A stretch of DNA of 63,529 bases, filler included, from Reclinomonas americana ATCC 50394 (taxonomy: Eukaryota): the NCBI GenBank assembly GCA_048213135.1. It is 11 parts of 10 records of this genome, joined end to end, with 100 filler letters (N's around TTAATTAATTAA, not from the genome) between each part and the next. Parts side by side here need not be neighbours in the genome. Positions count along the whole stretch, not along the records: positions 21,289 to 34,714 come from PS016003.1; 10 more parts are not named here. One strand, given 5' to 3'. Positions 5,812 to 45,700 of the stretch are shown piece after piece. The notes under the pieces were generated by a model, which ran no database searches, was not told the DNA's origin, and saw only the letters and a list, made by a program, of their open reading frames with translations. A program made the translations under genes and the position numbers. The number at the start of each line of letters is the position of its first letter. The stretch's first letter is position 1.

Positions 5812-5911
5812 NNNNNNNNNNNNNNNNNNNNNNNNNNNNNNNNNNNNNNNNNNNNTTAATTAATTAANNNNNNNNNNNNNNNNNNNNNNNNNNNNNNNNN
5901 NNNNNNNNNNN

Positions 5912-20300: not shown

Positions 20301-21598
20301 CGGCGGCGTATGGTGTGCCACCTGCGGCGGCTTACGGAGCGTACGGTTCCGTGTACTACGGTCAGCCCCCGGCGACGCACCACGCCCACCACGCGCATCA
20401 CCACCAGGCGGCGCAACAGCACCATCACCACCACGCGGCGCAGCAGCACTATGCGGCGGCTGCGGCCGCTGCCGCTGCGCAAGCTCACCATGCGTACGGT
20501 GCTCCATACGGCTACGCCCCGGGACCGCCACCACCGCCTCCACCATCTGCCTCTGCCGGTGGCTACGGCCCTGCGCCACCTGGTTACCCGATGCACCCGC
20601 ACCATCCGCACGCCCACCACCACCAGCACCTCGGTCCGCCCCCACCGCCACCGCCACCACAAGCACACATGTCGCCACCCGGTGCTTACATGTCGGTGGA
20701 GCAGCATCATCACCACATGATGTCATCGCCTCCGCAGCCGCAGCAGCAACAGCCACCACAATATGGTGGGTCGCCGTACGGCCCAATGACGCACCAGGGC
20801 ATGGGCTATGGACAGTCGCCTGGCTCGTCGCAGTCGCCGCCACCGTCGCAGCAGCAGCAGCAACAACAACAACAGCAACAGTATCAGCAAGCGCCACCGC
20901 CGCCGTTCGTGGTGTCGCCGCCGCCGAGCCAGGTGATGCAGTCGCCGCTGTTGCACCCGACTGTGGCCTCGCTGCAGCAGCACGGACAATCGGCGCCGCC
21001 GAGCATGGACACGTATCAGTACATGCCATTGTCGTTACGTCTTCATTTGCGTGCGTGTGCTTGTGCGCGTGCCTCTGCATTGTGCTCACCACATTCCTCA
21101 CACCAACACAGAGATCACATGTCGGAAGACTCGGGCGGTGTTGGCAGCACCGGCGGTGGTAGCAGTAGCGGGAACTGGTCCATGTCAANNNNNNNNNNNN
21201 NNNNNNNNNNNNNNNNNNNNNNNNNNNNNNNNTTAATTAATTAANNNNNNNNNNNNNNNNNNNNNNNNNNNNNNNNNNNNNNNNNNNNTTGCTGATTTGC
21301 ATGAGCGGTTCAACGGCAAGAAGTGGGAGCGGTTCAATTCCGAAAAGGTGTGCGCCATCACGTTTGCACGCATCCAGGGCAAGAACAACCTGGTGCAGCA
21401 TTTCCAGAATTCGAGTCTCCTGTTTGAGGAGGAGCAGTGCAGACCACTGCTCTTTAACGATGTCGGCGAGGAGGTGTGTGTGCATGACAGAGAACAAGAG
21501 TTGGTGTTGCTCAGTGTGCTCACTACTGTGTCTGCGCGCAGGAGGAATTCCCTGTTGGGCCTTACGCTCGCCGCCGCCGTGTGTCAACCGATCCGTGA
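17335..21598 (+). CDS. mei2: Mei2-like RNA-binding protein (RRM1, RRM2, low-complexity linker, RRM3 partly in gap)
   Basis: GEHPSRNLFVRNI, KHRGFVVVSFYDIRDA, NQGTLVVFNLD, FVEFYDTR. RRM3 signature FNGKKWERFNSEKVCAITFARIQGK..HFQNSSLL. Confidence 0.9.
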
Positions 21599-22401
21599 TG
21601 ACCACGCCGCTCTCTTGTCAGAAAAAGTGTGTCTTTGTCTCTCTCTCTGCTTAGGAAGAAAATTTGTCCCCCAACACACACACACACTGTCACACCTTGT
21701 ATCCTTTGTTTTTCTACCCCCTTCCCCCCCTTCGAGTAGTCTTTGTATCGATGTGCGTTTCACCAATCTACAACCCCCCTTGTCTTTTCCCCCCATTCCT
21801 GTGTGTGCTATAACGAACCACACACATGCCCCCGTCTTTCATCAACCCACAAAATAGTGTGCGTCCGTGGCCTCAGTAGTCGTCGTCTGCCGCGGCGTGC
21901 AGCCAGTCTCTGTTCTTTCATTCTGTATGTTTCTCTGTTTGAGTCGTGTTGTCCATTGTACACAAATCCTCATGATGTGGCTGGTTGTGGGGAAGAGAGG
22001 AGGAGGGAAGGGGAGAAGGGCACTTGTGCAAGTGCAACCTATTCGAATGATGTGGCTTGTCTTGGGAAGAGAAGAAGGATAAGAAGGTGCACCCAATGAG
22101 GCGGTCATCAACAGAGTGTGCATCACGCTGCAGCTAATGTGTTAAGAGCAGAAGAAAAGTCAAGGCACAATGCAAGCATTCTGTTCTTCCGACGATTGCA
22201 GCCAGCGAATTCGAAGTCATCTGCAACTTCGTGAGATAGCACATGGAGAAGACAGAGAAGACGCTTGCGGTGCACTTGCTGTTCGTCAACGCCAATGGCC
22301 TCACAGACAACACAAAAACGTCGCGTTGTGGACAACTGCGCTTGTCATGCACCGCAAGGACACCATTCACTCCCCCACTCATCATCGCAGTCAGAGCAGG
22401 A

Positions 22402-22548
22402 ATGATTACCTGGCTGCTTGGTCCCATTGCGTTTCGTAAGCTCTCCCTTGTGGCAAGCAACCGGTCATATACCAAACACTTGCATGCGCACAGTGTTCTC
22501 GTCGGTGTCTTGTGGCCCGCGTATGCCTCATTCAAGGTCTCACACACA

Positions 22549-22602
<54 letters not shown>

Positions 22603-23471
22603 CATTCTCTGACCGCCTTTCTCTCTTTCTGTGTGTGCTCCACAGGCGCTTGACACGTCATCTCCCGAGGACGACCGTCAATGGTGCACAGACACACACA
22701 CAGACGCGCGTGTGTGACTCACATTCTTCCGCTCACTCTCTTTGTGTGTGTGTGTGTGCGTGCACAGGCTGACGTACTGGGTGTGCTTTGGTGTCATCTC
22801 CGCTGTGCACAGCGTGCTCTCATACGTCGGACTTGGGTGAGCGCAGACTTGTCTCTCTCACACACAGACACTTTCTCTCTCTGACACTCTCTCACACACA
22901 GTGGTGACCTGCTGCTGCTCGCGAGCATTCCATTCTACCTCTGGCTGCAGCTGCCACAGACCAAGGTCTCTCTCTCTCTCTCACACACAATGCCTCTCTT
23001 GTGTGCTCTCACACTGCAGCGTACTCAGGGCGCCACTGTTGTCTATGAGAAGTTCATCCAGCCGTTCTTCAAGGCACGTTTACCTCGCGTTTTACTCTCT
23101 GTTTGGGTGCCTTACCTTCCTCTGTCTCTGTGTGCAGAAGCACGAGTCGCAGATTGATGGTTTGTTGCTTGTGTGCTCTTTGTCACTCTCACTTGTATGT
23201 TGACTGTATGTGGCGCAGGTGCTGTGAGCGACGTTCTGCGCAAGGGTATGCTCATTGAAAAGGGAGGAGAAGCTTGTGCTCGGGATGCTCATTCTGTTGG
23301 TGCACAGGCGTCCAGGTGGCCAAGGACAACGCCGGTCGCGTCATTGCTGGAGCGACCAGTGTTGCGTCTCTCGTCGCTTGTCTCCATCTCGTGCGCGTCT
23401 GCTGCTCACTTTTTTTTGGTTGTTTGCAGACCCTCATGCATGCGGCGCAGGAGGTCGAGAAGAAAGAGTAG
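22402..23471 (+). CDS. REEP/YOP1/HVA22 (TB2/DP1) ER-shaping protein
   Basis: Spliced LVGVLWPAYASFKAL..DDRQWLTYWV..FYLWLQLPQT..GATVVYEKFIQPFFKKHESQID. Confidence 0.85.
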
Positions 23472-23583
23472 CCTTTGGCGCTGAGTGCGCTCTCCTCGCC
23501 CATTGACGCGCGCGAGAGGAAACCTCCCCCAAGCAAGAATAAAGAAAGCTCAGACTCTTTATCACATGGCGCGCGTTGACACA

Positions 23584-25065
23584 TTAGAGCTCATCGTGCG
23601 TCTTGTGCGCGGTCTTGTCACCAACAGGCTGCGATGGTGGTGGAGGCGGTGGTGGTGTCGCCTTGACTACCTTTGCAGCACCCGATGCCGTCGTCGCCGG
23701 CTTCTTCGCCGCCACTGTCGTTGTGGACGACGACGAGGAGGAGGGCGCAGGAGAGGCGGGCACCGGCAGTGTCGCCGGCACAATGGTTATTGACTTGCCG
23801 TGCGTGTTGACAGGCGCACTGCCAATGGCCGCCGCATACGCCGCCGCACACTGCACGGCATCACGCGCTCCGCACACTGCCGAACCATGCAGCGCAATAC
23901 CACGTAGCGAGGGTGACCGCTGTGCGGCTTCCACCAGCAGCGCAATGGTCTCAATCGACAGCGCATTGCGACGCAGCTCCAGCACCTCCAATTGCTCCAG
24001 CTTGTCGAGCACCGGCACCAAGTGCTCCACCACGCCCGCGTCATCGATGCCACACTCTGCCCACATAAGAAGTGAGCACACGAGAGTTCAGTGTCAAGCC
24101 GCCAGGTGGGCACGCAACGCGACAAGGTCAGCTTCTGCAGACTGGCCAGATCCTTGAGGATGGGCGCCAAACGCGCCACCCCGCCCGCCCCAAAGTGCAC
24201 ATTCCCTCGCAAGTCCAGGTGCGTCACGCGGCCAAACACGCGTCTACGGAAGCCCATCGTGTACGCCAACGCAGGCATGTCGCTCTCCAGCACATCGCAG
24301 TGCGCCAGCGACAAGAGCGTCGGATCCTCAATGAGCTCGTACATGACACCAAACGCCGAGTGCTGCTTTGCTTGAATCGCGGCCTTCAGTGGGCATCCCA
24401 TGTCCTCCACGGTGTCGTGGAAGCCGGCGCCTTCCAGATACAGCCTCTGCACTCAACACACGCGCGCGCAAGTGTGAGAGAGGAAAAACTCTTAAGTTAA
24501 GAAGAGCGCGACGCACCCTTATCTGATCTTCATTGCCGACGCGAGCTGCGCGGATCAGCTGCAAGGCCAGATGCTCCTTTCGAGACGCACGCAACGCACT
24601 GGTCAATGCCGCGACAAGTGCGGCGTTGTTATTGTCAGTCGTCGCAGCGATGGGCGCAATTGAAGTTGTCGATGCGATCGCCGTTGTCGGTCCGGCAGTG
24701 CCGCGCGCCCACGCGCTCAGATGCCACAAGTACAGTGCGAGCCACACGGCCGACACAATGAGCACGAATTGAAGTACGAGCGATGGGCCTCGTGCAACGG
24801 TCGACATTGCGTGACCGACCGATGAGCTCATTGAGGAAAGCGATGGCGATGCTCGGCGAAGACGCTGATGATGATGATGATGTTGTTGGAGGAGAGGCGA
24901 TGAGCGCACAGACGACTCGTCTTCGTCTTCATACTCATCGTCGTCATCATCATCGTCCACACAGAGTTGATCGCACGCGTTGAGCGCCGCAGCGGCGCGC
25001 AACAAGGCATCGCTGCTCGTTGAATCGCCGCCATCGGTGCGAAGAGTGGCGCGCGTCTCTGCCAT
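23584..25065 (-). CDS. Single-pass membrane protein with RNI-like leucine-rich repeats
   Basis: Hydrophobic segment LVLQFVLIVSAVWLALYLW. LRRs VTHLDLRGN, LQKLTLSQCGIDDAG, LEVLELRRNAL. Confidence 0.65.
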
Positions 25066-25214
25066 GTGTCGCACACGAGTTGAAGTAAAGCGAGTGGATC
25101 GCCAATGGACGGAGCGATACTTCAACTGGGCTCATCGTCGTCGACTCTCGCTCACCAATGCCAGCGTGGCTGTTTGCCCGTGCGGGCAACAGCACGACCG
25201 TGGTCGCTGATGCG

Positions 25215-28200
25215 ATGGGCGATCAGAACGCAGAGATCGCTGCGATTTTTACAGAGCATGATCGGCAGGAGTTCACCAGCACGTTCTTACAGGTGTGCGC
25301 GTGTGTGTGTGCGCATGTGTGTGTAAGAGAGAGAAGGAAGAGAGCGCGAAAGAAAGGAGAGAGAGAAAGAGTGAGAGATTGCATTTGAAGTTTCTGAGAG
25401 ATACAGATTGCGTGTGTGCACGTGTGCCTGTGCGTGTGTGCGTGGCCTACGTGTGAGAGTGATCTGCGCAGATACCACTTTTCCCCCTCACTTTGTCAGT
25501 CATGTTGTGATATCGCGGCTCCACGCTCATTTTCTTGAAATAAAATCGCAGCTTGGCATTGTGGCACTCGGCTTATCTCTGATCTCGGCGTTGGTTCTGA
25601 TGGTCGGTCTCAGTCGCGGTCGACTTCGTCATTTGCCACTGTTGCGCACTTCTTCTTCTTTTCTCTCACTCACAAGAGAACGATCTTTCTCATGTGTTGC
25701 TTGTAGCATGTTTGCGCGCATCATGGACGCCAAGACCTTTGCGCGATGGGCTCTCTTTTCCACAATTGTCGTGTGGTTCTTTCTGATCATTGCTCCGCCG
25801 GTGTTTCTCATTGCCTGGGGCGTGGTGGTCAGTCGTTTTGTATTCTTCTTTTCTTCTTTATGCCATTGTGTGCGGCTCAACTCTCTCCACCCACCACCAG
25901 ACGGCGGCTCGAGTGAATCCGTATCTGATTGGTTTGACCATTATCCTGCTGTCGATTGGCACTGGCATCCTGTTGTTTGCCGTGCTGCGCTGGCGCCAGA
26001 TGCGCTTCCTGTTGACCGGTACGCGTGCTGCTCGTCTCGTCTCCTCCTTGCCTTGCCTTGCTCACTGACTGACTGACGGATGCGTGCGTAGCATTTACGT
26101 GGTGGCTGCTGGTGCTCGGCCTCATGTGCTTCCTGATCTATGAGATCGTGGTCGTGTACACCATCAACGTGTTCACCTACATTGGTGCGTCGTCGGTGTG
26201 GCTCTCCTTCAACGCCATCTTTGTGGTGCTGATTGGCCACGAGTTTGAAAAGAGTTGCGTCTCCCCCTCCCCTTCCTTCCTTCCTCCTCCTCCTCTCACT
26301 GCCTGCCTTGGTGCACTCATTCACTCGATGCACAGTGCACCTGAAGGACGTTGACACAATTCTGAACGAGAGCAACGTGAGTGGTGCCAGCGGCGCATCG
26401 CAGTACGGTCCGCCGCAGTTCGTGTCGGCCATGTTCACACGCTTCGGTCGGCTCAAGCCAGTGTTGCGTCTGCGGTGCTGATTGAAGCATGATAGCAGCA
26501 CGTCCTCACTTGTGCCTGAACACACGCAGCACGCGCATCATCATCTACTACATCATGGCCATTCTCGTCCTCGTCGGCTACATTGTGACCGTGCTGACTC
26601 AAGTCGACGACCGCGAAACCGTGGTGACGGCCACTGTGGTCGCCATTATCGTCGTCGGTCAGTCACGACAGCGACATGTGAACCATGCTCCGTCTCTCTA
26701 TCTCACTGCTTCTGTGACCAGATATTTTGCTCTTTATGCGCTTCATTGCGCAGCGTCAGGCGGATCCGGTGCTGCTTTCGTGGAAGGCCATTGCGGTGCG
26801 AGTGGCACTCATCTTTTTGGGCCAGCGGTCAGTGACATGGTTATTGTCGTCACCACCGTGATAATCACGAATTCATCTCTCTCCCCTCTCTGCTCTAGGT
26901 ACTACTTTGTCGCCCACACCGTCGTCTTTATTGCGTTCGGGTGGTACCTGGTCACCGAGGCGATTCTGCGTCGCTACCCGAAGTACTCGCAGTCTCGCAA
27001 CGAGATTGTGCTGGACGGCATGCAGCGAATCATGGAGGCCAACTCGCCGGCCGCTGGCACTGCCGCGGCTGCTGCGTGGAGTGACGCAGAGGCGGCAGGC
27101 GTGGGAGCGAGCAGTGCGGCAGCGGGCGCCAGTGACGATCCAAGCAGGTGAGGAGTGTCTGTGGTAAAACGGCTGACACCTGCGGACGGCTCATCGCACG
27201 CGCGACACAGACACGCGCCGTCTATCACACCCGTTTCTCCTACTGCACGCCGTGCCGCAACGCCGACACCCATCTCGCAGCGGGTATGTGTTGCCAGAGC
27301 TTTTTTGTTTAATCGCTCGCGTGTGTGTCGCTGACCCGTGTTCGACGCAGTGGTATCTCTCGCCCGAGTTCGTACTGCTGTTGCTGGTGCTCGCTTTCGT
27401 CATCGAGATGATTGTGACAGCACGAGTCGGCCACCTCGACAAGGTCCGCATCGTGGACTTGTACCACGAGCAGTGGCTTGTCGGCGTGTGTGGTATTGTG
27501 CGTGCAAATATGTTTCCCTTCACACACCACGTCTGCAGTTTTCTCAATCACTTGCAGATTCTGGTGGCCGACTGGGCTTTTATCGTGTGGACAGCCATGG
27601 TGTTGCTGTCGACCAACTGGTGTGCTGGCATGACGGTGAGCATTCGACTCGCCACTCTCCGCTTCAGTAACGTGCCTCATCTTGCATCTTGCAGTTCCGC
27701 ACATTTTTCGGAAGCGGCGCCGGCTGGTGCTTCTTCCTGTGCGAGGTCGCGATTGCCGGTCTGGGCCTGCTGGTTGTACTGGTCACGCGCTCGTACATTT
27801 TCCTGTTCAGCTCGATCTTTGCGTATCCCACTGGCCTCTTGTGCGCCTTTGCGTTGCACTGGTGGCGCGACAATCACTACAGTTGCGCCACAATTCGACA
27901 TTGGCAAGTGCTTTTTTTCTCTCTTCTCACGTCGCTGGAACGGCGCACAGATGTGCTGCAAGAGCCCAAGTTCCGCAAGGAGCCGCATCGCGCTCGCAAC
28001 TCATTCAGTGCCTTTTTGTGCTGCGGCCTCACTGGCGCCGACTACGGGGTTCGTGTCCACTGGCGTTGTGTATCCGCTCGGTTTATTGCTCATTTATTTG
28101 TTTTGTCGCTGCAATCAGATGTTGTTTGTGCTCCTGCTCATCTGCGGTCTGCTGGTGGCGTGGGGCGGCGGCATTGCGGCAACCATTTATCGTTGGGTGT

Positions 28201-31200
28201 TGTCGCGCTGTCGTGATACTGCTGGCAATCACAACCTGATGTTCTTTTGTCGACGCAGAGTCGTGGATCGGCTGGACCATTGTGGCTGTGCCGTTTGTCG
28301 TCGGGACCTCGGTGCGTCGTTTCTCTCTGCTTCCATTGTGCACGCCCTGGTTGTACTCATTGTCTCCCCCCAAACAGATCCTTCCCATGGTCAAGTGGTA
28401 TCACACACTGAATGTGTCGCGCTCGATTCTTTTCGGTCTCGTCAGCGTTCTGCTTTTCGCCTTTATCTGGACTCTGTTGCGTCATTGTCGTGATGCAATG
28501 ACTCTTGCCGTCGGTGTCTGACATGTTGACGCACTCAGCTACATGGCCCTCATGTATACGCGCATCATTGATCGCAACGACAAGAGTGCCAGTCTGGCAA
28601 TCCTCTTGGTTTACTTTTCGTATCCGACGCTGGTGCTGGCCATCAGTGCCTTTATCGTGTGGTGCGTGCGTGGCGTTCCTCTTTCTTCTTTTCTTGGTTG
28701 CCATTCAGCTGACACCCTTCCGCAGGCGCGAGAATCGCTGGAAGCTGACGAGTGTCGTCTTTTGGTGCCTCCTGCTGTGCGCACTTCTCGTTCTGGCCCT
28801 GGCCATTGCCGTCACGGTCGTGCTGAGTGTGGCAGCGGGTCTGGCGCTCTTTGGAGTGTTTGCGTTGTTGGTGGTGGCCGTCGTTGCGTGCTGTACTCCG
28901 ACAAATGTCGTGAACTACTGAATAGAGAGGCTAACTGCCTGGGCGGCTGCTGGCGATAGGTGTCGATTGTCATCTGGGTGCGACACGATTTCCAGGCGCC
29001 CACACTGCTGCGCCAGATCGTCGTCACCAGCGCACTGGTGCTGATTGCCGCCGGCATTGGCATCGGCTTTGCCGTCAACCAGGCGTTTGCCGGCTTTAGT
29101 GTGGCTTTCGGTGTGGCCTTTGTCGGTCTCCTGTTCCGTGGTGCTCGCTACGTGCTCGATCGGTATGTGGGCCCTGTCGCATGCTCTCGCTTCCCGTCAA
29201 CTGTGTTGACAAGATGTCCACACGCACAGGTACACGTTGAATCGCTTGTACTGCGTTTCGAGTCCATTCGTTGCGTGCTCCACATTTCGTCCTCCGCCAC
29301 TGCGGCGCTAACAATCGCCGGCACAGGTCTTCCCGCTGTTCAAGTACGACTCGACGAGCGACTCGGTCAAGTCGTACAATCGCAGCATCAGCTCCCTTTG
29401 TTGCGTCTCTCTTGTGCGGTCCGAAGAAGTGCGGTCTCGCGGTGTTCACATGCTGCCGCCAACTCAGACATGTCATTCTTCGTGCTCCTGTGGTGGGGTG
29501 CGGCGGCCACGGTGTTCCTCTCGCCTGCCTGGATCGGCATGGCCGTGGCGTCGCTGGCGGTGCTCCTGTGCTTCATCCTCACGCTCGACGCACTGCGCCG
29601 TCCCCAGGAGGCCTTTACCAGTGTGGCCGATTACGTGACACCCGCACTCATTGCGCGTGCCCACGAAGAGGTGAATAGAGAGGTGTGCGCACATATATTG
29701 ACCACTGATTGTCTGACTGGCTCGACGCGGTGGTGTGTGTGTGTGCAGGCCGACAGTCGCTTCTCCGAGTTCCAGTTGAACCGACTGCATCCCGACATGG
29801 ACGACCAACCGCAGCCACACGGTGCTTCGGGATCGACGGTGCCGGCCATGGGAGGCCACCCCATCAGTCCCACCAACATTGTGCTGAACGAGCCAGCTGA
29901 CCAAGGACCGCGCGGTGCCGGTCCCGCACCGGATGTCGCACCTGCGAGCGAGGGACCGGTGCCAGCGAGCGAGTTGGAGCGGCGCATCGGTGCCATGTCG
30001 CTGGGCTACAGAGAAGGCGACCATGCCAACTGGCTGCAGCTCCAGGAGTACAACCGCCTCATCAACGAGGCGCACAAGCAGGAGCAGCAGCGCATCGCTT
30101 ACTTCCGTGTTGCGTTGGGGCAGCGTGTTTTTCTCCCTTGATGGCTTGTGCTGAATTCTCGTGAATAGTTGCATGTGCTGATGGCCGCCAGTGCCGCCCG
30201 ACGCGCCGACGAGGCCGAGTTCAACGAATTCGTCGGCCTGCAGATTCGCGAGTTGCAGGCGCAGCAGGATGCCGCCAATGCCGCCATTGTGGCTGTTTCG
30301 TGCTTCTCCTCTTTCTCGTGTTTTTCTTATCGAGTCCGTGGCTCACTGGTGAGAACACGCAGGCGGGTGACGACCCCACTGCGCGACGCAATGCGGAAGC
30401 CTCGCGGGCGTTTTGCGAAAAGGCCATTCGCGTGTATCGTGACATTCAGACGGGCAAGCTGACGTTGCGCGCTGTAGCCTGTCGTTGTGGTGTCGACGAT
30501 TGACCGCTGACCATTCTTGTTGTTCTTGATTGTGTCGTGCAGTCGGGTCAGCGACCAGGATAACGCGCTCGTGCGTCACGACTTCCGTGCGTTCAAGGTC
30601 AAGCGCGAGGCTGAGATTGCCGAGCAACGCCGTCGCAAGCGTGAGGACGAGGAGGCAGAGCGACAGCGGTGAGTGTCTTTGTTTCCATTGTATGTACTTG
30701 GAAGTAGCATTGGCTGAGAGACCGAGACAGTCGTGAGTTGGTGCGACGGCAGCGCGAGGAGGAAGAACGCCGACAGCGGGAAGAAATGATGCGCCTCGGC
30801 GGCGGTGGCGGCGGCGATGGCGGTGGTGTCTCGCCGTCGGCAGTTGGCATGGCCGTGGCTGCGCAGGAGCAGCTCATTGCGCGCATGCGGCAGGAGTTCG
30901 ACGCCATGCTGCGCAGCGAGCAGCAACGTCGTGACGAGGCCGAGCAGAGGCGAGCTGCCGCAGAGACCGAGCTTACGCGCCTGCGCAACGAGATCAGTGG
31001 AGCGCATGAGGACCACGGCACCGCGCAGAGCCGCATCGCCGAGCTGGAACGGCAGTTGCGCGAGGCCTCGGCCATCGCCTTGCACCTCGACCAGGAGGCG
31101 GCGGAGGCTCGTCAGTCGCTGCAGGCAAGTGAGCAACGCGCGGCTGATTTGGAGCGCCAGGTGATGGAGGGACGAGCGCGCCCCGCCGACGACGCCAATC

Positions 31201-34200
31201 GTGCCATGCTGGAAGAGCTCACTGTGGCGCGTGATCGAGTTGCGTCTTGTGTCTCTGTTGCTGTCAATCGATCCTTTCCGTGATGCTAATCGCATGACAG
31301 GCCATGGACCAAGTGCGACAGTCCACAACGCAGCTGGAGCAGGAACGTGCACATTCGCAGTCACTGCAGCAGGAACTCAATACACTGCGCGCGCAAGCTT
31401 CGCGAAACACCGACTCCAGTGCCAGTGTTCCAGCAGCCACGCAGCAGCAAATTCAGTTGCTGGAACGACAATTGCGTGCGGTGCGTGACTGCATATGCAA
31501 CACAGTCTGGTGTTGTGTGCTGACACGCATTTTATTTCGTGTGGTTAGTCAACGGACCGTGCGGATCGGCTGCAGGCCGAAGTCTCCCAGCTGCACGACG
31601 CTCTGCAGGCGACTCAGACGGAGCTGCACACGGCGCAGGACCGTCTGCATGCTGCACTGCAGGTGTGCAGCGCGACATGAGTGGAGCGTGTGGAGCTCAC
31701 TGCTCACTTTCTCTCGCTCACAGAACACGTCGGCTTCGACGGCGGAGATGGAGGCTGCCAAGCGTGCACAGGCAGAGGTAACTTTTTCCACAGAGAGATA
31801 TCTTGCATCTGTGCACTGACACTGCGCCATGGTGCAGGCGGAGCGTCGCATGGCCGCGGCCACTTCCAATCTCGAGGTGGAGCGCCGACGAGTGTTGGAG
31901 GCGAGTTGATGCACCAGTACTTTCCTCTCGGTGGCCTCTCTTGTTCTCATGTCGCGCACCATTCATCAGTTGGAGAGTCAACTCGGCACCGCGCAAGCGA
32001 CAGCACGCGAGGCCACTGCACAGCTGCAACAGCTGCGCGTGCGTGCGGAGCGTGCCGAGGAAGAAGTGCGCAAGAGTCGGCAGGAGATCGCCACGCGGGA
32101 TGCACGCATCACCGAGTTGCAAGAGGCCACGCAAAATGCCCGTCGCGACCTGGTTCTCGCGCAGCGCCGCATTGCGGAGCTTGAGGTGCTGTTGGCGCAC
32201 GCTTCGGCCGGTGGCGCAGTGGGCGGTGGTGGCGGCGGTGGTGCGCCTGCGTTGATTCCTGTGGCTCCAGTCATTAGTGGAGGTGGATTGCGTCCGCGTC
32301 GCGGCCCCACCATCGAGTCGATTATTGCCGAGTGCAAGTCGGCCGGCCGCAAGTGGCGAGACACGACATTTTCGTCAAACGACTGCCTGCACATTAATCC
32401 GCGACGGCCCTCCAAGAGTGCGTTGTGTCTTGCATCGCTTCCCTTTCGCGTGGCTGGTCTCTCACTGCAACACTCGCCACAATTGTGTTTCGCAGCGTAC
32501 CAAGTACGCGAATGGAAAGATCCGTCGTCAATTGCCGACACACCAGCCGTGTTTGTGGAGGCACCGACAACCGATGCATTTGGACCCGGCACTCGCGTCC
32601 GTCAAGGGGTCTGTGTTGTGCTGATGTGGCATGAATCGATTGTTTGACTGACTCGTGGTGTGTTGGCAGTCACTCGGCGGTACTGTTCCCACATTGTACT
32701 GCTGTATTTATGACTGTGCAGAGTGACTTACATGTGCTTGTTTGCTTCCATGTGTGTCGCTGCGATTGTTGTTTGACGCAGAGTTGCGTCACCTTGATTG
32801 CATGTCTTCTGTCTTGCATCACTGATGTCTCATCCCACCGCGATCTTGCACAGTTGCTACTTCCTCAGCGCACTCTCGGTTCGTTTTATCACCACTTTTC
32901 TTCTGCTGGTGTGCGTGCATGTTGTTGACCATGTGCACGCCCGTACAGGTACTTGGCAAGTACGGCGACCGCCTTCGCGATCTGTTTGTGGTCAACACGC
33001 GCCAGCAGATGCCTGGTGAAGAGAGCACGGATGTGGGCGGACCAGCGGTGTCGCTTGACGACTGCATCAAGTGGGGAGTGTGCGTAACTGTGGTAGCAGT
33101 CTGCTTCATCGTGACTTGACGCTGATCGACATGCATGCAGCTTCAACATCAAGTTCTACAAGGAGGGCAAGTGGGTGTCGGTGTTTGTGGACGACAGGTG
33201 AGATGCTGCATGGCCGTTGTCCTCACTGGCGCGCAGCTCACTCACTCCCAAACACAGTTTGCCCACATTCAACATGCACCCGTCGTTTGGACGCTCCGTG
33301 CGCGATGACGAGTTTTGGGTTTCGCTGCTGGAAAAGGTTTGCCGCGGTGCACTGGTGTTGATGCAGTGCCCCCGTTGTCGCTGACTGGAGTGAGTTGCAG
33401 GCGTACGCCAAGGTCCACGGCAGCTACGAAGCCATTGTCGGCGGTCAAGTGTCCAACGGTGCCCATATTCGCTCGTGTCGTTTTCTGATGGTTGTGGGGT
33501 ACTCACATCTTGTCGAACAGCACTGGTGGATTTGACGGGCGGTGGCGGCACGCTGATCGACCTCACCGACACCAAGGTGAAGCTGGATGTGGACAGCGGG
33601 CATCTCTTTGATCAACTGCTGCAGTACTACAAGGCCGGTCATCTCATTGGCGCCGGCTCGGTGGATGGCATGGGTCGCGGTGATGCGGCCACCGTGCGTG
33701 GTATTNNNNNNNNNNNNNNNNNNNNNNNNNNNNNNNNNNNNNNNNNNNNNNNNNNNNNNNNNNNNNNNNNNNNNNNNNNNNNNNNNNNNNNNNNNNNNNN
33801 NNNNNNNNNNNNNNNNNNNNNNNNNNNNNNNNNNNNNNNNNNNNNNNNNNNNNNNNNNNNNNNNNNNNNNNNNNNNNNNNNNNNNNNNNNNNNNNNNNNN
33901 NNNNNNNNNNNNNNNNNNNNNNNNNNNNNNNNNNNNNNNNNNNNNNNNNNNNNNNNNNNNNNNNNNNNNNNNNNNNNNNNNNNNNNNNNNNNNNNNNNNN
34001 NNNNNNNNNNNNNNNNNNNNNNNNNNNNNNNNNNNNNNNNNNNNNNNNNNNNNNNNNNNNNNNNNNNNNNNNNNNNNNNNNNNNNNNNNNNNNNNNNNNN
34101 NNNNNNNNNNNNNNNNNNNNNNNNNNNNNNNNNNNNNNNNNNNNNNNNNNNNNNNNNNNNNNNNNNNNNNNNNNNNNNNNNNNNNNNNNNNNNNNNNNNN

Positions 34201-35324
34201 NNNNNNNNNNNNNNNNNNNNNNNNNNNNNNNNNNNNNNNNNNNNNNNNNGTGCAGGGCCATGCGTACGCCATTCTGGGTGTGGCACAAGAGGACTCGTAC
34301 CGCCTTCTCCGCCTGCGCAACCCGTGGGCCTCCACCGAGTGGGAGGGCGACTGGGGCGACAAGGACCGCGTGCACTGGACGCCGCGTATGAAGAGCAAGC
34401 TCGGCTGGTGCGTGTGACAGGAGAAGGAGAGTGTTGATCGCCAGAGGGACTCATTGGTGGCGGCGATGTGTTCGCAGGGAGGATGTGGACGACGGCAGCT
34501 TCTGGATGGAGTGGACTGATTTCGCTCGCTTCTTCGACACGGTGTATGTGTGCCGTCTGTTCGACGGTTGGAGACGCACACAAGTCAACAACAAGTGGGA
34601 GGGTGCGACCGCGGGTGGCTGCCGATCGGGCGCCGGCGATATTGCCAGCAATGTGCAATACTTGCTCAACGTGACGCAGACGACGCAAGTCTTTATTCAA
34701 CTCATTCAGGCTCCNNNNNNNNNNNNNNNNNNNNNNNNNNNNNNNNNNNNNNNNNNNNTTAATTAATTAANNNNNNNNNNNNNNNNNNNNNNNNNNNNNN
34801 NNNNNNNNNNNNNNGCTGGTGAGCTGGCTATCGACTATGAATCGTTGACGCGCATTGCTGACTCACATGTTACGCGCAGCGTGAGTCGCAAGCGTTCTCC
34901 ACGCACGTGACTTACGAAAACCACCCGATTGGCCTGAAACTGGTCTCCAAGCGCGGCAAGCGAGTGCAAAACGGTGCGTCAGCCATTGTCGTGCCGTGTT
35001 TTTGTGATCTCGTTGTGCTGACTGGGAGTGATTTTGGTGCAGTGTACACACGAGAGGTGGTGGCCACAAGTGGTTCCTTTGTTGCGTACACGAGAGTGGG
35101 CACAGCGGGTAGCGCGGCTCATCGAAAAACCAACTATGTACACGCACGCACAGATCAATTCGACACAAGTGAGCGTGGAGCTGGCGCTGGAGCCGTCCAA
35201 GTGCCCCGTGACCATTGTGCCATGCTGCTACGACAAGGGCGAGGAGGGTCGGTACACACTCATGGTGTTCTCCGACAAGGACGTGGACTTCCGCATGCTC
35301 GACAGCAGCGTGGCTGCCGACTGA
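25215..35324 (+). CDS. DEK1-like transmembrane calpain (large multi-TM region, coiled coil, CysPc, C2-like)
   Basis: Many hydrophobic exons at 25550-29600 and coiled coil at 30200-32200. CysPc: [61 protein letters not shown]2[10 protein letters not shown]. Confidence 0.85.
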
Positions 35325-36711: not shown

Positions 36712-39291
36712 ATGGCAAACTTTGTCACGATTCCCTCCTCGTCTTCCTCCTCCTCCTCCGCGTCCTCGTGTGAGCTTGGCTCATGCGGGCTTGTGTGGCT
36801 GTGTGTGTGCATGGTGCTCGCGAGTGTCGTGTTTGTCGCTGTCCGTGAGCTCGCGCGATGGATGCTGCAGCATGTGTTGATGCCCTCGGTGCCAAAGGGA
36901 ACTGCACTGGCCACTGCCTTTCATAGGTGAGAGATAAGAGAGAGAAAAAGAGAGAAAGTTGGGGAGACAAGGGAGGAGGGCGGACATGGAAGAATGTAGT
37001 GTGTGTGACGCAACAAGGAGGTGCTTTTGACTTGCAATGCTTTTTGTGATGACGTGTTTTTTGATTGCAGGTGCATGGCGAGTACAAAACAGTTTCCGGA
37101 CGGCATTCGATTGCCTGCACGACATGCGGAGTTGACCAAGAGGTGCTGCCCTCGTCATACTACAGTTGTCTTCCGCTGTGTGGGATATTCATCAATTTTT
37201 TTCGGTAGATTTCTTCCGCCGCACTGGCGACTGATGCTCGAGTGGTTCCCGTCGTTTTGCGTGAAACACCGCTTCTCGTACATGCCGGGCATTGGAGCGT
37301 GTGTGGTGGCGCGCACGCGGTATATTGATGAGGAGGTGGAGCAGGCGTTGCGCGATCCGCGGCCCATGGCGTCGCTGCCGGAGCGCGAGGTCAAGTTCCG
37401 CCAGTTTGTGGTGTTGGGCGCGGGATTTGATACGCGGGGGTGGCAGTATGCGGAGGAGTCGCGGCGGGCGGGGGTGAAGTGGTTTGAGGGTGCGGGCGGA
37501 GGGGGGAATGGAGGGGAAGGGAGAGGGGGAAGAGGGGGAAGGGAGGAGGGCGGTAGGATGTGTTGTCTCTCACTCCTTCTCTCGCCAAGAGTGTGAAGCA
37601 GTCTGTTCCTTCATTGTCTTTCTCTCACTCTTTCTTTCGATTGTGTGGCCAAGAGTGTGCAGTGGTCTCCGTGTTCACTCAGAAAGACGACGCAGTCGCC
37701 TTATCAGTCCCTCACTCTTTCTCTTCTCGATTGTTTGCTCGAGAACGTACTGTAGTCTCCGTGTACATGTTCAAAGAAAGAGGATGAAACCACTGCAGAG
37801 TCTGTTTCTCGCTCTTTCACTTCTCGATTGCGAAGCCAAGAGTGCGGCAGTCACTGTGTTCACTCAAAAAGACGACGCAGTCGCAGCAGTGTTTGTGTCT
37901 CTCACTCCTTCTCTCGCCAAGAGTGTGACGCAGGCTATGTTCCTTCAGACGTACTGCAGTGTCTTTCTCTCACTCTTTCTCTTCTCGATTGTGTGGCCAA
38001 GAGTGTACAGTTGCCTCTATGTTCGCTCAGAAAGACAGCGGTGTCTGTTTCTCGCTCTTTCACTTCTCGATTGCAAAGCCAAGAGTGCGGCAGTCTCTGT
38101 GTTCACTAAGAAAGACGACGCAGTCACTGTTGTCTCTCACTCTTTCTCTTCTCGATTGTGTGTGGCTCGAGAGTGTGCAGTAGTCTTCGTGGTCACTAAG
38201 GAAGACGACGCATGCGCAGTCACCTTATCAGTCCCTCACTCTTTCTCTCCTCGATTGTGTGGCTCAGGTGTGAGCAGTAGTCTCCGTGGTAACTCGAGAC
38301 GACGGTGCACGCACTCCAGTGCCTATCTCTCTTTCTCTTTCTCTTCTCAAGAGTGTGCAGTAGTCTCCGTGAGACGATGCAGTGATGCGTTCTGGTTGCA
38401 AGACCTCTCGTGTTACCTCCTATTCGTCTCTCTCCTCTTCATCTTTGTAGATTCAGTCGCTGCACGCATCTGAGTGTTGAGCAGTCATTCTCTTTCTCTT
38501 TCTTATCTGTCTCACCCTCTGTCTCCCATGCCCGCCGCGCAGTGGACTTGGCGCCCATGCAAGAGTACAAGAAGCAACAGCTGACGCCGGAGGAGCTGCA
38601 GGTTTGCTGAAGACAAACACTCCACCGTCACTCCGTGTTTCACTGACGCCCGCCCGCGCACAGATGGTCACCTTCATTCCGGTCGACTTCACCGCGGGTC
38701 AGTACGCGCTGCGCGATGCGCTCGTCAACTGCCCGTCGTTCGAGCAGAATGCACGCACACTGTACATTTGGGAGGGCGTGACATACTACCTGAAGCCGGA
38801 GGAGGTCGATGCGGTGCTTGTCAGCCTGCGCCAGGTGTCAGGACCGCGCTCGGAGATTGTCTTCGATTTCGTGTGGCATACGGATATCATGCGCCCCGAC
38901 CTGCCGCCGCCAACACGCTACGGGTACGTGTAACAAAGCGTGCCTATCTGTGGGGGGTAAGGCCACTCGCTGATTCACATTTCCCCTGATGCTTTCTGCA
39001 GCATGCGATTCCTCAACGAGGTCGTGCGTCAGCGATACGGCGAACCGCTGTTTTCCGGCATGCCCGACGGTTCGTGCAGCCAGCCTACCAGCTCCTCTGT
39101 GATGCCACCTCTCACGCCCTCGATGCCTCACATGCACAGGCAATCTGAGCACGTTCTTCGCCGATCGCGGATACCTCGTCATGCGCTGCGTGACACCCGA
39201 CGAGGCCCAGAAGCGCTACCTGACCGACAGCAGCGCCGGCATGTCAATCAAGCCGGTCAGTCTCAACTACGCCACTGTCTCACTTCTCTGA
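36712..39291 (+). CDS. LCM/ML2640-family SAM-dependent methyltransferase (start uncertain)
   Basis: TALATAFHR, ARTRYIDE, QFVVLGAGFDTR, FEVDL, TLYIWEGVTYYL, GEPLFSG. Confidence 0.85.
37560..38390. repeat. ~75-bp unit minisatellite in methyltransferase intron
   Basis: Recurrent ctcactctttctcttctcgattgtgtggccaagagtgtgcagt..gttcactcagaaagacgacgcagtc. Confidence 0.85.
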
Positions 39292-39397: not shown

Positions 39398-42300
39398 ATG
39401 GACGCAGAGCTCAGTCACCTCGTGTACTTGGACTACAATGCATCGACGCCCATCTGCACAGCTGCACGCGAGGCAATGCTCCCTTTCCTCGGTGCTTTCT
39501 TTGGCAATCCGAGCAGCTCACACGCTTTCGGAGTCGCACAAGTTCCTCTCTCTCACACACTCTCACTCGTGTGTGTGTGCAGTCTCTTACTCTCTCTGTG
39601 CCACAGAGGAAAGCAATTGAGAAAGCGCGGCAGCAGGTGGCCAGTGCGTTGAGAGTGACTGGAGGTCCCGATGAGATCATCTTCACCTCGGGAGGCAGTG
39701 AGAGCAACAACTATGCGATCAAGGGTGCAGTGATGCGGGCGAGGTGAGGGGCACTGTGATAAGAGAGAGAGAGAGGAGGGGAGGGGGGGGGGAGGGAGGG
39801 AGGGAGGAGGAGGAGGGAGAGAGAGAGAGAGAGAGGTAGGGAGTGCGAGGACGAAGACGAAGAACGAANNNNNNNNNNNNNNNNNNNNNNNNNNNNNNNN
39901 NNNNNNNNNNNNTTAATTAATTAANNNNNNNNNNNNNNNNNNNNNNNNNNNNNNNNNNNNNNNNNNNNAGGCAGACTGCCTTACAGGCATACAGGCAGGC
40001 AGGCAAACAGACAAGCAGACAGACAGCCAGACAAGCAGACAGTACGACGTTCCCCCTCACTCCCTTTGCCTCTCCTTCTCTCCCCCTTTGCCCTTCTCCC
40101 TGGAACAGTGCTCTGTACCTCAACAACGCCGGCGGTCACATTATTACGAGCAACGTGGAGCATCCGGCTGTGCTGGAGGTGTGTCGCGCACTGGAAAAAT
40201 CCGTGCCGGCGTTCACTGTGTCGTACGTGGAGGCCGATGAGAGTGGTCTCGTGTCGGCCGACGCAGTCATGCGAGCGGTGCGCGATGACACGCTCCTCAT
40301 CACCATCATGCACGTCAACAACGAGGTCGGCACGGTGAACCCGATTGCGGAGATTTGTCGGCGCGTGAGGGAGCTGAATGCGGCGCAGCCTGGTCGCCGG
40401 GCGCCGGTGCTGGTGCACACGGATGCGGCGCAGTCCATTGGCAAGATCCCTACGTTTGTCGACGAGTTGGGTGTGGATCTTCTGTCGGTGTGCTCGCACA
40501 AGTTCTACGGACCGAAAGGTGTCGGGGCGCTGTACATTCGACGCGGTGTGCAGCTGGAGAAGCAGTTGCATGGAGGTGAGAGACTGTGTGTGTGCGTGAG
40601 AGCTGGTCACGGCCCTGAATGTCTCTGTGTGTGTGTGCAGCCAATCACGAGCGCAACATGAGACCAGGCACGGAGAATGTGTTGGAGATTGTCGGCATGG
40701 GTGCCGCCATTGAGGACATGGTGCGCAATCTCGACAAGAACGCGGCGCACATGCGACGCATGCGGGACGCGCTGCACACGGCACTCGAGGCAGCGTTTCC
40801 GCCGCCCCTCACACGCCTGAATGGCCACCCCACGGAGCGCCTGCCCAACACACTCAAGTTTCGTTGTCCAGCGATCATCTCGTTCTCTCTTCACTGCTGT
40901 TGATAGTTACTTCTGCGCGCCCCCACGTAGCATCGGCTTCCGCAACGTGGAGGGCAGCTCGGTGCTGGATGCGTTGAGCGACACGCTGGCGGCGTCCGCT
41001 GGAGCCGCCTGTCACAGTGGCGACGATGCCATCTCGTACGTGTTGCGCGCGATGCACGTGCCGGAGGAGTACTCTCGCGGCTCCTTGCGTCTGTCCACTG
41101 GCGTGCTGACCACGGAGGAGGAGCTGGAGCGCATTATGCCCAAGTTCATCGAGGTGGTGCGAGGACTGATGCCAAAGGAGGAGGCACAAGACGGGGAGGA
41201 GGAGGAAGGGGAGGCGTGTGCGTTTCTGCATGCAGATTTGAAGTTGCGGCATCGCTGTGCCGCAGTTGTGGTCTTCGTTTCCTCCAGCTGACGGTGCGTG
41301 GTGTGCAGGTCGATTCGACTCACCACCACCACCCACGGTCTGGGCTGCGGGTGCAAGCTGCGTCCGCAACTGCTGGAGCAGGTGTTGCGGAATCTGCCGC
41401 CCCCCTCCGATCCCAACGTGCTGGTGGCCACCTCGACGGCAGACGACGCTGGCATCTACAAACTCAGCGACACGCTGGCCCTGGTGCAGACCGTCGATTT
41501 TTTCACACCCGTGGTCGACGATGCGTACATGTTTGGCGCCATTGCCGCCGCCAATGCCATATCTGATGTGTGCGTACACTTGTGGCGGTGCATTCCCCTC
41601 GATGCTCGTGCCAACCACCTCTTCCTCCAGGTATGCCATGGGTGGCATTCCGCTGACGGCGCTGAATATCGTCGGCTTCCCGTCGTCTCGATTGCCGCTG
41701 GCGGTGCTGGAGGCGGTGTTGCGGGGCGCCGCAGACAAGGCCGCCGAGGCTGGCGTCTCCATTCTTGGCGGTGAGTGCAGTGCAGATCGCAGTGCTTTCT
41801 ATGGTGATGCTTATTGCGGGCAGGCCACTCGGTGGAGGACCTGGAACTCAAGTTTGGCATGGCGGTGACGGGAACAGTGCACCCGGATCGTGTGTGGTCG
41901 AATGCCACCATGGAGGCCAACGACGTGCTGATTCTGACAAAGCCACGTAAGTTTTTTTCAGCCCATTTTCTTTGTGCTCTGTGTGTGCGAGACTCACGTG
42001 CTGTCGACAGTCGGAGTTGGCATTCTGAGCACAGCGGTGAAACGGCGAATGGTCGACGATAGCACGGCGCAGCTTGCAGCGCGAACCATGGCTCATTTGA
42101 ACAAGTACGCCGCCGAGTGTGTGCTGAAGACGCAACTCCGTGTCACTGTGCATGCGTGCACCGACGTGACGGTGAGAGAGTGTCTATGTCGGCGGCTGTG
42201 CGATCGTGATCTGATATTGACTCTCAACAGGGATTCGGTCTGCTCGGCCACCTGCGCGAGATGGTGGGAGGCAGTCGTGCGCGGGCAGGTCACGAGCAAC

Positions 42301-42729: not shown

Positions 42730-45700
42730 TTATGAGCATGGACATAATCGGGTGGTGTGCGGGTGCTGACTCGTGCACTGCGGCACCTCCTCTGTGATGA
42801 GACATCGTTCTGTGGAGACACACACAAAGGGGATGAGGAGGCAGGCTTCTGCATAACTGCAATCGCAGGGAGACGCACGATAGTTGCGGTCGCGAGATTC
42901 GGGCACATAGACGGGGATTTCCGTGCCCCATTCAAGGAAACAGCCTACAAGATGGTCGTGAGCGACGCAGCTCGTTTCGGCAAGCGTGCAACACAAACTT
43001 CGTACCTCGCTGACTGCCGCATTCAAAGAACTCATACAACGTGTGGCAGTGGTTGATGTAATCAAAGCTCGACGACTCGCACGACAGACCGACATTGGCA
43101 CACGCTGCACCAAACACAAGAATTGAACACCCACCACGTGTGGCCCCGTTCTCATGGATTCCAAGCCACACGCACCATTGACGCAGTTCTGATCCCGCTC
43201 CGCGCGCACAACTTGAATGTTCTCCAACGCCTTTTCCAAATCGTTGGCATACGTCTGTGTACCCGCGCGTGAGCTAACAATGCCACTGCCTCTTCTCTCT
43301 CTCTCTCTTTCCAGCCTCGCACGCAACTGGAACGTAGGGCGAGAGCGTGGCACTGGCCAGAATCAGTACGTGCTTGCCGTGCAAGTTGTAGAGGATCTGC
43401 GCGTGGCGGTGGTGCGCACGCGGGGTGGACCACAGGCCGAGTGCCCCGGCAATGCCAGCGAATGCAGGCTTGGCGTACGGAACCAGGAAGACGCCGGGCG
43501 CACGACTCTCCAGCGACTGGAAGTTGGAAAAGTTCGTCTCCAGCACCGTGGCCATCGAGAGCAGTTTGCGCAAGTCCCGTTCGTGTTCCTGCGAGAGGGG
43601 GGAGGTGGGGAAAGGGAAGGGAAAGGGTAAGGGGAAAGGGAGGAGGGGGGAGGGGAGAAGACCGAAGGGGGGAAGGGGGGAGACCGAAGGGGGGAAGACC
43701 AAAGGGGGAAGACCCAAGGGGGGGACCGAAGGGGGAAGACCGAAGGGGGAAGCCCGAAGGGGAAGCCCGAAGGGGAAGCCCGAAGGGGGGAAGGCGAAGA
43801 GGGACTGAGAGGAAGAGGTCCATACCTGGAAAAGCATACGAGAGACATCACCGAGATAGACGTCGGGCTTGTCGGCAAATGCCACGTTGCGGAAGAAACG
43901 ATCGTACTCGGCATTGTTCACGTCTGCTTGACACAGGTTGAGAATGTGTCTGCTCGTGTACGCACGAGTCCAGCGACGCAACTGGTGCCTGTCTCGCCAA
44001 TGTTGTAATTGCGCGAGATCTCTGGAACGACACACTGGCGTCCACGATTCACAGAGTCGATGCGCATGCCGTGGTCCCAGTGGTCGTTGGACCATGAGTT
44101 GCGAATCTGCATGAATGAAGACAGACAAGGTGTGAGCCACAGCACGATAGAGACGAGGTGAATGCTTTCGACTACCGAGGAGAGTCTTCGCACAACAAAC
44201 CTCCATCCACACTTCACGACTGAGCATCCAACCGAGACCCGGGAAGAAGCTGGTTCTTCGCAACCGTGCCAGATTCTGCTCCACCAGATGGTTGAAACCG
44301 TTGTCGTTCCACGTCGACACGCACCACAGTGACGGATCGGCAGCCAGCAACGGCGCCAGCTGCTCGAAGAATTGCAGCAGATCAGGCGAGAACAACATGT
44401 CTGCACACAGTCGTGTATGAGAGAGAGAGAGAGAAAGAAAGGCTGCGCTTTGCCCGCATACAAAGCCACCAACCGTCCTCGAGCAGAATGGCGTGCGTGT
44501 GCTTCTTTTGCACAAACACGCGATCGAGAGCCTCCCTGCACCACGCGCTCATGAGCACAGCAAAATGTGTACGCCCGACTCGCAACGCGAGGTGACACGT
44601 ACTTGTAATGCGCTGCAATAAACGCCGTGCCAGTCTCCTGTGCGCCCGGAAGACGTACGTGATCGCGCTGCACGTGCACGAAGCTCGGATTTGCGGCCTG
44701 CACCAGCGGCCCGATGCGCCGTCCGCGCCCATCCTCCGACACATACACCGTGATGTCTCCCACAAGACGCACTTTGTTCAGACTCTCCAACGTGCGCTGG
44801 AGGTACGTGGTGCGATCATACGTCAATACGATAACAGCGGCGTCCTTCAAGTACTTGAGCGATTGCTGTGCGAGAGAGACAGGTCTGAGCGAAAACGACT
44901 AGCGTTCGTCACAGCGTGACGTGGAGACGAAACTGGAGCCTTTCCGCTCTCAATGTACACACTATCGACCCTCTCAGCCGCCACCCACTCGCGCGTGCCC
45001 GGCAGCCGTCGTTCATGCGACGCCCGCACCAGATCCAAGTACGGCAGATACTCGGGAAAGTCCCGCTGCGATTGCGCCATCACCTGCACCAACAGCAGAG
45101 TCAACACGCGCCGCACAGTCTCTCACATGCCATGCACAACTCGCACCATCCGCAGCTGCACGCCCTTGCCGGGCGGGAACAACTTCTTCGGCATCGCATC
45201 CGGTCGGATCAACACTGGCTGCGTGACAGCTGCGCCCTCCTCCTCACCACCTGCATCATCCTCATCCCCACCAGTCGACGACGACACTGGCGATTCCACA
45301 GGCGGTTCTGGCTCCACAGAAGGCGGTTCCAGATCCAGCGGATTCTGCTCACACCAACGATTAAGCGGTGGTGGATTTCTCATTTCTACTCAATTGCAAA
45401 CTGACCGATTCCTCTGTTGTCTCGCTCACTGGTGGAGGAGGTGGAGGAGGTGCAGGTCGCCTCTTCTTTGACTTGCCACCACGTCGTTTCCTTCGCTGTT
45501 TTTGCTGTGGTGTTGGCGACTGCTCTTGTTCCTCTCGTCGTCGACGAATGTCATCCAACTGAGCTGCGTATCGATCAATGCGCTGACGGAAGGCCGCAGT
45601 GCCGGGAATGTCAGCGGAGGCTGTCTGTGACTCCTCCTCCTGTGACATGTCACCTCCAGTTGAGTTGTTGTTGTTGCGTGTGAGCTGGAAGAGGAGAATG

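Follow-up and report, generated by a model that had tools for sequence, protein, structure and literature searches.

A candidate single-nucleotide exon at the catalytic cysteine motif of a DEK1-like calpain gene in Reclinomonas americana

A membrane calpain gene and its micro-exons

We analysed a calpain gene in a 63,529-nt stretch of DNA from Reclinomonas americana ATCC 50394, here called the window; all positions are window positions, and the piece that carries the locus comes from PS016003.1. On the homology of its predicted product, the host gene is a large DEK1-like membrane calpain. In the model favoured here, the 340 nt from 32609 to 32948 hold three micro-exons, of 10, 1 and 25 nt, and four introns, of 61, 102, 71 and 70 nt, and encode only 12 residues (Table 1). 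This cluster falls exactly at the catalytic Cys motif, the other 33 internal exons of the gene measuring 40-641 nt. The smallest of the three, a lone A at 32782 (A32782), is in our judgement likely to be a real single-nucleotide exon of a functional calpain gene, one that would place the G, A and T of an Asp codon on three successive exons. A first-pass annotation of this DNA had put forward the same candidate, and its positions for the 10-nt exon, the A, the Cys exon and the two introns of 102 and 71 nt agree with what we find in the sequence.

Table 1. Features of the calpain locus, in window coordinates (^ marks an exon boundary)
Feature	Position	Strand	Details
DEK1-like calpain gene, large and membrane-anchored	25450..35324	+	at least 40 short introns; about 10 kb
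Exon	32496..32608	+	ends ...CGT CAA GGG, last codon (GGG) complete; GT next
Intron, 61 nt	32609..32669	+	GTCTGT..GGCAG; CTGAC 18 nt upstream of 3' end
Micro-exon, 10 nt	32670..32679	+	TCACTCGGCG; cag before, GTACTG after; Ser-Leu-Gly plus first base (G) of Asp codon
Upstream intron, 102 nt	32680..32781	+	GTACTGT..TTTGACGCAG; length, donor and branch-motif position atypical
Second candidate A	32722	+	GTGCAG^A^GTGACTT; introns would be 42 and 131 nt
Perfect 7-bp inverted repeat	32774..32791	+	TGACGCA (32774-80) / TGCGTCA (32785-91); minimum-free-energy fold
Candidate single-nucleotide exon A	32782	+	middle base of Asp codon GAT; context CAG^A^GTTGCGT, 32779-32789
Downstream intron, 71 nt	32783..32853	+	consensus-class donor GTTGCGTC; acceptor CACAG
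Micro-exon, 25 nt	32854..32878	+	acag^T TGC TAC TTC CTC AGC GCA CTC TCG^GTTCGT
Intron, 70 nt	32879..32948	+	GTTCGT..GTACAG
Exon	32949..33079	+	carries lineage-specific insertion common to P0275

The identity of the gene is supported along most of its length. It is colinear from 25531 to 35279 (tblastn) with a 1991-residue protein, P0275, and the match spans hydrophobic N-terminal segments, a coiled-coil stretch, the protease core and the C-terminal domain. P0275 derives from a 7.4-kb metagenome contig, too short to hold introns, and has in common with the gene a lineage-specific insertion, ..LDDC[IV]KWGV. The Pfam profile Peptidase_C2 (PF00648) matched the exon at 34250-34417 (46.2 bits, E = 4.1e-12; cut-off 23.8) and, more weakly, the exon that follows it (23.1 bits), and the His (GHAY) and Asn (RNPW) residues encoded in 34250-34417 align to homologues. 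Cys, His and Asn are the established catalytic residues of the calpain family. Calpain domain III (PF01067) scored 17 bits against a cut-off of 21 (E = 0.0074), on a stretch broken by an assembly gap. An exhaustive HMMER search with the 55 residues of the exon at 34250-34417 gave 2231 hits, the best at 62% identity and none from the same species or otherwise close; by name the best hits were calpains of diverse protists or unnamed contigs, one relative, from Andalucia, being called 'calpain-type cysteine protease ADL1' by its source, and the closest relatives lay on intronless contigs. A word-based protein search with a 62-residue exon among longer proteins returned no hit at E <= 0.001.

The eight introns of the catalytic region were set by hand, and those upstream were taken from a dynamic-programming parse using codon bias, homology bonuses and simple splice scores, followed by a check of the junction peptides. 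A first ab-initio parse was discarded for several wrong donors, and an apparent 250-nt intron of the second parse re-parses as two introns of 63 and 67 nt. With the curated introns and the 10-, 1- and 25-nt exons, 25450-33705 yields 1872 open codons, against 42 and 29 stops in the other two frames. The frame is otherwise undisturbed across these codons, which gives no hint that the assembly is prone to indels at this locus, and the piece from 21289 to 33705 is free of N. Further downstream, the gene is interrupted by a gap at 33706-34249 and by a linker at 34715-34814.

Reading frame across the catalytic motif

The phase of the two larger micro-exons defines the problem. When the 10-nt exon is joined straight to 32854, the message is one base short and the product is frameshifted (QGSLGVATSS). 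Inclusion of either candidate A alone, 32782 or 32722, restores a motif of the QGxLGDC type and an open frame to 33705, the segment 32496-33705 having no stops with the A and being frameshifted without it; inclusion of both leads to a stop 72 codons into the segment translated from 32498. Translation of these joins bears out what had been proposed beforehand, namely that the Cys exon lies one base out of frame, that G, A and T together form the GAT that rebuilds the motif, and that use of both A's would shift the frame. In the resulting model, the 25-nt exon contributes the T that completes the Asp codon and then CYFLSALS, in which the catalytic Cys lies, and the Cys of the triad is encoded only if the 10-, 1- and 25-nt exons are all included.

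Comparison with homologues supports the restored spacing. Set against P0275, its intronless orthologue, the spliced model runs gap-free through the motif, the counterpart reading RVNQGALGDCWFISAISVLA, and over its last 330 residues it is 38% identical across 350 positions (E = 3e-64). Of 150 homologues, 48 gave motif matches, 53 in all, one of which, with G, is non-homologous. In the 52 homologous instances, the Cys is preceded by D 41 times, by T six times and by N five times, and never by V or A.

We enumerated the internal exons that could lie in the span between the 10-nt and Cys exons, with AG before, GT or GC after, and a length that restores the phase. A lone A is the sole internal exon that restores the motif. 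Seven more internal exons, 4-34 nt long, are in frame and without stops, five having GT donors and two GC donors; this is a caveat to the first-pass statement that the other AG/GT combinations tried there ran into stops or frameshifts. Each of the seven adds 1-11 residues between the motif Gly and the Cys and breaks the Q-x5-C spacing. These exons, among them a 4-nt TTGC at 32784-32787 and a 10-nt exon at 32724-32733, nevertheless offer a different splice solution, as does a non-canonical 5' site one base downstream (GGCGG^TACTGT, giving ..LGGCYF..). U1 can pair with donors in shifted registers, and GTACTGT has a GT at +6/+7, so that a shifted pairing register is imaginable. Homologues, however, keep Q-x5-C and D, T or N before the Cys, whereas these solutions add residues or swap Asp for Gly. 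Moreover, the donors of the other micro-exons (GTCACCT, GTGCTTG and others) fall outside the enriched classes, the nine other introns of the gene that begin with GTTGCGT all fit canonical GT..AG boundaries in frame, and downstream introns of 66-120 nt would be needed. We regard such a solution as very improbable.

A more drastic possibility is that the Cys motif is not made, either because the gene is a very recent pseudogene or because the 10-, 1- and 25-nt pieces are left out of the mRNA and the product is a pseudo-protease that has no Cys. Skipping all three (36 nt) does stay in frame, as ..RVRQG^VLGKYGD.., and the ab-initio parses lean this way, the first having omitted the 10-nt exon and the A and merged the 25-nt exon into a longer one, and the second having omitted the 10-nt exon. 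Conversely, the 10- and 25-nt pieces encode a perfect motif peptide and are bounded on both sides by canonical AG and GT, four sites in all, which would not persist unused; the triad His and Asn and all 1872 codons are intact, so a pseudogene would have to be extremely young. Loss of the motif is in our view the least probable of the explanations weighed here. The first-pass proposal that skipping of the A could act as an on/off switch for protease activity is speculation and finds no support; skipping yields only a frameshifted message.

Splice signals, intron lengths and the second site

The downstream boundary of the candidate exon carries the donor word that this genome appears to favour. 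The window holds 37 copies of GTTGCGT, where dinucleotide shuffles hold 13.9 +/- 4.2 (none of 100 shuffles reached 37), and nearly all copies have a YAG 54-93 nt downstream. Within the calpain gene there are 10 copies, all on the sense strand. All nine besides that at 32783 start introns of 57-82 nt, with junction peptides that fit P0275 and the open frame (for example, ..SPF^VFPLFKYD in the model vs ..SPFLFPVYQYQ in P0275, and ..IAYFR^LHVLMAAS vs ..EVYFQLTLIMLAEG). Of the donor hexamers in the 38 other introns of the gene, GTTGCG ranks first (11/38), and GTGCGT begins a further 6. Because GTTGCGT is the main donor class and all nine other sense copies are real donors, an exon very probably ends at 32782, as judged from the genomic sequence. 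The first-pass annotation had placed the donor at 32783 in a 'shifted class'; by these counts it is no weak oddity. With that label and the switch set aside, the core of the first-pass reading stands up to the sequence-level tests of phase, fit to P0275, intron lengths and donor class, and is to that extent a probable one.

The donors in the window fall into two registers, GTGCGT and GTTGCGT, in which one TGCGT core is offset by a single base, an unusual splice-signal architecture. Examples of such donors lie at 26254, 26463, 28476, 28883, 29270, 29400, 30109, 31239 and 35081 on the + strand and at 50129, 50293, 50386, 50521 and 51275 on the - strand.

An exon ending at 32782 could begin after the AGs at 32720-21, 32722-23 or 32780-81, or could be the continuation of the exon that starts at 32670. 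Two of the resulting exons, of 61 and 113 nt, meet a TGA, and a third, of 59 nt, has the wrong phase, which leaves the 1-nt version as the only stop-free, phase-correct exon with that end. Its size need not be an obstacle to recognition. Across 36 introns, the exon-side positions carry next to no information (donor -3, 0.01 bits; -2, 0.07; -1, 0.34; acceptor +1, 0.01), so a 1-nt exon lacks nothing that the signals need. Scored with a position weight matrix (PWM) from the same introns, the acceptor at 32781 beats 28 of the 36 true acceptors; among 404 background AGs, 18 do as well.

Intron lengths point the same way. The 38 other introns range from 57 to 88 nt, with a median of 66.5 nt, and 32 of them end in CAG and 6 in TAG. 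An undivided span between the 10-nt and Cys exons would measure 174 nt, above all 38; divided at the A, it gives 102 and 71 nt, of which the latter is typical. The 71-nt intron also has a CTGAT 28 nt and a CTCAT 21 nt upstream of its acceptor CAG, like neighbouring introns. The interiors of 37 other modelled introns (2338 nt; one of these introns was later re-parsed) contain one YAG-N-GT and no GTTGCGT, vs two and one, respectively, in the 174-nt span. Two of the seven GCAGAGT copies on the + strand of the whole window lie inside the span, and in 200,000 first-order Markov simulations of it AGAGT appeared at least once with P = 0.07 and at least twice with P = 0.002. Shuffling puts GTTGCGT at about 1.1e-4 per nt and strand, which makes the probability of a background copy in the span about 0.02, and by our arithmetic an AG and an A placed directly before it bring roughly a further factor of 64.

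These figures bear directly on the explanation that a single base is missing at an exon edge, through a sequence error or a recent real 1-bp deletion, and that one 174-nt intron separates the two larger micro-exons. The missing base could be an A after 32679 or before 32854, or one lost from a homopolymer, with GG standing for GGG at 32678-32680 (Gly) or TT for TTT at 32854-32855 (Val). There are two positions at which the loss of one base would account for the absent GAT, and the weak donor GTACTGT and the absence of a well-placed branch motif in the 102-nt intron would then need no explanation. The missing base would, however, leave to coincidence the presence of the consensus-class donor inside an intron, the AG and A directly before it, and the second GCAGAGT within the same span, and would imply an intron twice as long as the longest of the 38 others. 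The homopolymer versions yield Gly or Val, residues seen in 0 of the 52 homologous motif instances, and no other frameshift interrupts the 1872 codons of the same contig piece. We consider a missing base unlikely, though less so than the other alternatives to a single-nucleotide exon.

Several observations count against that exon and temper our confidence in it. The assembly is a fragmented draft, with 20 N44 runs forming 10 N44-TTAATTAATTAA-N44 linkers, plus five other gaps. The gene model was built by us from homology and from a parse that rewards GTTGCGT donors. In the PWM from 36 introns, which pools the two donor registers and has little power to tell true sites from background, the donor at 32783 scores above just 10 of 36 true donors and is equalled by 148 of 708 background GTs, while the donor at 32723 ranks high; an earlier PWM from 8 introns, trained without the GTTGCGT class, was discarded as misleading. 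The upstream intron, at 102 nt, is atypical under any reading. Its donor GTACTGT has a T at +5, found in 1 of 36 introns, and its sole YTVAY motif lies 5 nt from the AG, where 28 of 31 ab-initio introns have theirs at 9-32 nt. YAG-N-GTKGCGT occurs three times in the window against 0.86 expected, and a scan for paired intron-like segments gave a 1-nt 'exon', a T at 26462, that is really the final nucleotide of a normal exon of 127 nt; in itself, then, an acceptor-like triplet ahead of a real donor is no rarity. The second GCAG^A^GT, at 32722, lies outside this model and would frameshift the message if used alongside A32782. Finally, protein, metagenome-contig and related-locus searches found no genomic orthologue.

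For the long upstream intron, we note that 32724 to 32779 contains no AG; by conjecture, a branch near GTGACTTAC (32723-31) would still reach the AG at 32781. Minor (U12-type) introns carry the donor motif RTATCCTT, from which both donors here, GTACTGTT and GTTGCGTC, differ. A search of 32400-33200 against Rfam gave no match at E <= 1, that is, no intronic small nucleolar RNA or other known RNA that would lie behind the length of this intron.

If one base is indeed spliced as an exon, the A at 32782 is far more likely to be that base than the A at 32722. The donor word of the latter, GTGACTT, is not enriched (6 copies vs 3.3 expected), and the site may be an alternative route, a decoy or a product of chance. 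Tandem duplication as the origin of the two GCAGAGT sites was rejected, as their flanks are unlike and no repeat family lies over them.

The candidate exon also sits in a predicted hairpin. In the 4-nt loop between the arms of the 7-bp inverted repeat, GAGU, the first base is the G of the acceptor, the second the candidate exon A and the last two the GU of the donor, and helices of at least 7 bp arise in 18 of 1406 mismatched pairs of donor and acceptor 12-mers. The 191-nt stretch 32670-32860 has a fold z-score of -3.0, and none of 200 shuffles folds as well. Pairing of intron ends, or terminal inverted repeats, as a general feature was rejected: the mean helix is 3.47 bp in true and 3.38 bp in mismatched pairs. 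In the predicted fold, the acceptor region of the 32722 site (GACUGUGCAG, 32712-32721) pairs with the final acceptor region (..UUGCACAGU.., 32846-32855). Reverse-complementing the donor word GTTGCGTCA gives TGACGCAAC, from which the observed TGACGCAGA differs by two changes, a likeness that may hint at the origin of the acceptor.

Among the other features of the window, the segment scan that gave the false hit at 26462 also produced candidate micro-exons of 6, 6, 12 and 10 nt at 24517-24522 (-), 36908-36913 (-), 55657-55668 (+) and 57987-57996 (+), each between intron-like segments with consensus-type donors; the first lies within a long open frame and may be plain coding sequence. A junction probe with a gap of 0-3 nt had no matches in metagenome contigs, and a related locus (L001), retrieved with the lineage-specific exon, was set aside as a chance TLDDCIKW match that is not a calpain. 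An intron-free open frame of 499 codons at 18290-19789 (+) encodes a MEI2-like RNA-binding protein (RRM_1, 4e-26), its best relatives being MEI2-like proteins, 56-72% identical over about a third of the query, and contrasts sharply with the intron-dense calpain gene alongside. On the - strand, two open frames at 43274-44898 match Pfam GNT-I (N-acetylglucosaminyltransferase I; 8.9e-21 and 9.3e-11) and are probably exons of one gene. The 10 linkers, which join contigs and carry stops in all frames, lie for example at 5812-5911, 11292-11391, 13301-13400, 21189-21288, 34715-34814 and 39869-39968, and the five ordinary gaps hold 106-581 N.

Proposed stepwise splicing, known cases and implications

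The phase arithmetic, homologue fit, splice-signal statistics and intron lengths given above were computed directly, and from them we infer the presence of A32782 in the mRNA, the order in which its two introns would be removed and any role of the hairpin. With splice sites defined almost wholly by intronic sequence, each short intron would be recognised on its own, by intron definition. Because both introns abut the same nucleotide, they could not hold spliceosomes simultaneously and would be removed one after the other. The consensus 71-nt downstream intron, with its GTTGCGT donor and branch-like motif 21-28 nt before the CAG, would most likely go first, leaving a 26-nt exon (ATTGCTAC...). 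That step would also destroy the 3' arm of the 7-bp hairpin, which could free the acceptor TGACGCAG, so that the weaker 102-nt intron could follow. Were the upstream intron to go first, this would amount to a recursive type of re-splicing at GGCGA^GTTGCGT, with an identical mRNA as the result.

A bolder version of this scheme would make the locus a regulated, error-prone relay, in which the A's at 32722 and 32782 serve as equivalent 1-nt exons on alternative routes, the hairpin sets the order of the steps, and the splicing of a single nucleotide decides whether an active protease is made, 1-nt exons being common but unannotated in this genome. Frameshifted messages would then arise from inclusion of neither A or of both. 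We think this elaboration unlikely.

Recursive splice sites, or zero-length exons, are known from long introns of Drosophila and vertebrates, of tens of kilobases, and nothing of them is kept in the mRNA. The calpain site resembles them in that an acceptor is followed at once by a donor, that removal would be stepwise, and that splicing of the upstream intron first would regenerate a 5' splice site (GGCGA^GTTGCGT). Unlike them, it keeps one base between the acceptor AG and the donor GT, which sets it apart from a zero-length exon; the frame needs this A, and the introns are of 102 and 71 nt.

Nuclear single-nucleotide exons appear to have been described in two genes, APC11 of Arabidopsis thaliana and CYP621A of Fusarium, and our full-text search of the literature yielded no other spliceosomal case; the first-pass annotation had called such exons very rare, with APC11 as its example. 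A placozoan mitochondrial 1-bp exon is also reported. The APC11 exon, A333, is a lone A between AG and GT within an annotated 422-nt intron, is constitutive and absolutely required for the reading frame, and was proven by sequencing of cDNA, resequencing of genomic DNA, and constructs in which the A was deleted or changed (A>T, A>G) (Guo & Liu 2015, PMC4674806). The 1-nt exon of CYP621A was deduced from clashing phases, an intronless relative, the sequence AGGGT and an intron of 139 nt against a median of 56 nt; it was then confirmed by 18 SRA reads, its base is a G conserved in 24 genes, and the paper calls itself the second example (Nelson & Syed 2026, PMC12940212).

The calpain candidate shares with APC11 a lone A that lies between AG and GT in an apparent intron and is needed for the frame. 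It differs in that the plant exon has a 422-nt host intron, while the calpain introns measure some 60-100 nt and its A, a candidate from genomic sequence, stands between two more micro-exons. With CYP621A it has in common a phase clash at a conserved motif, an intronless relative as a marker of length, an intron more than twice the median, an AG^N^GT arrangement, and an exon that supplies the second base of a codon belonging to an invariant motif. Where the fungal case has a G, 24 genes and SRA reads, the calpain has an A in a single genome, deduced from sequence.

If the proposed structure is true, R. americana would add a further member to a very rare class, the first outside plants and fungi, and one that lies inside the catalytic motif of a protease and within a run of three micro-exons of 10, 1 and 25 nt. 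A standard annotation pipeline would label this calpain of about 2,000 residues a pseudogene or a Cys-less protein. In genomes where exon-side positions carry no splice information, more 1-nt exons may hide behind introns of about double length. More generally, a spliceosome limit of one base would then be no plant or fungal curiosity.

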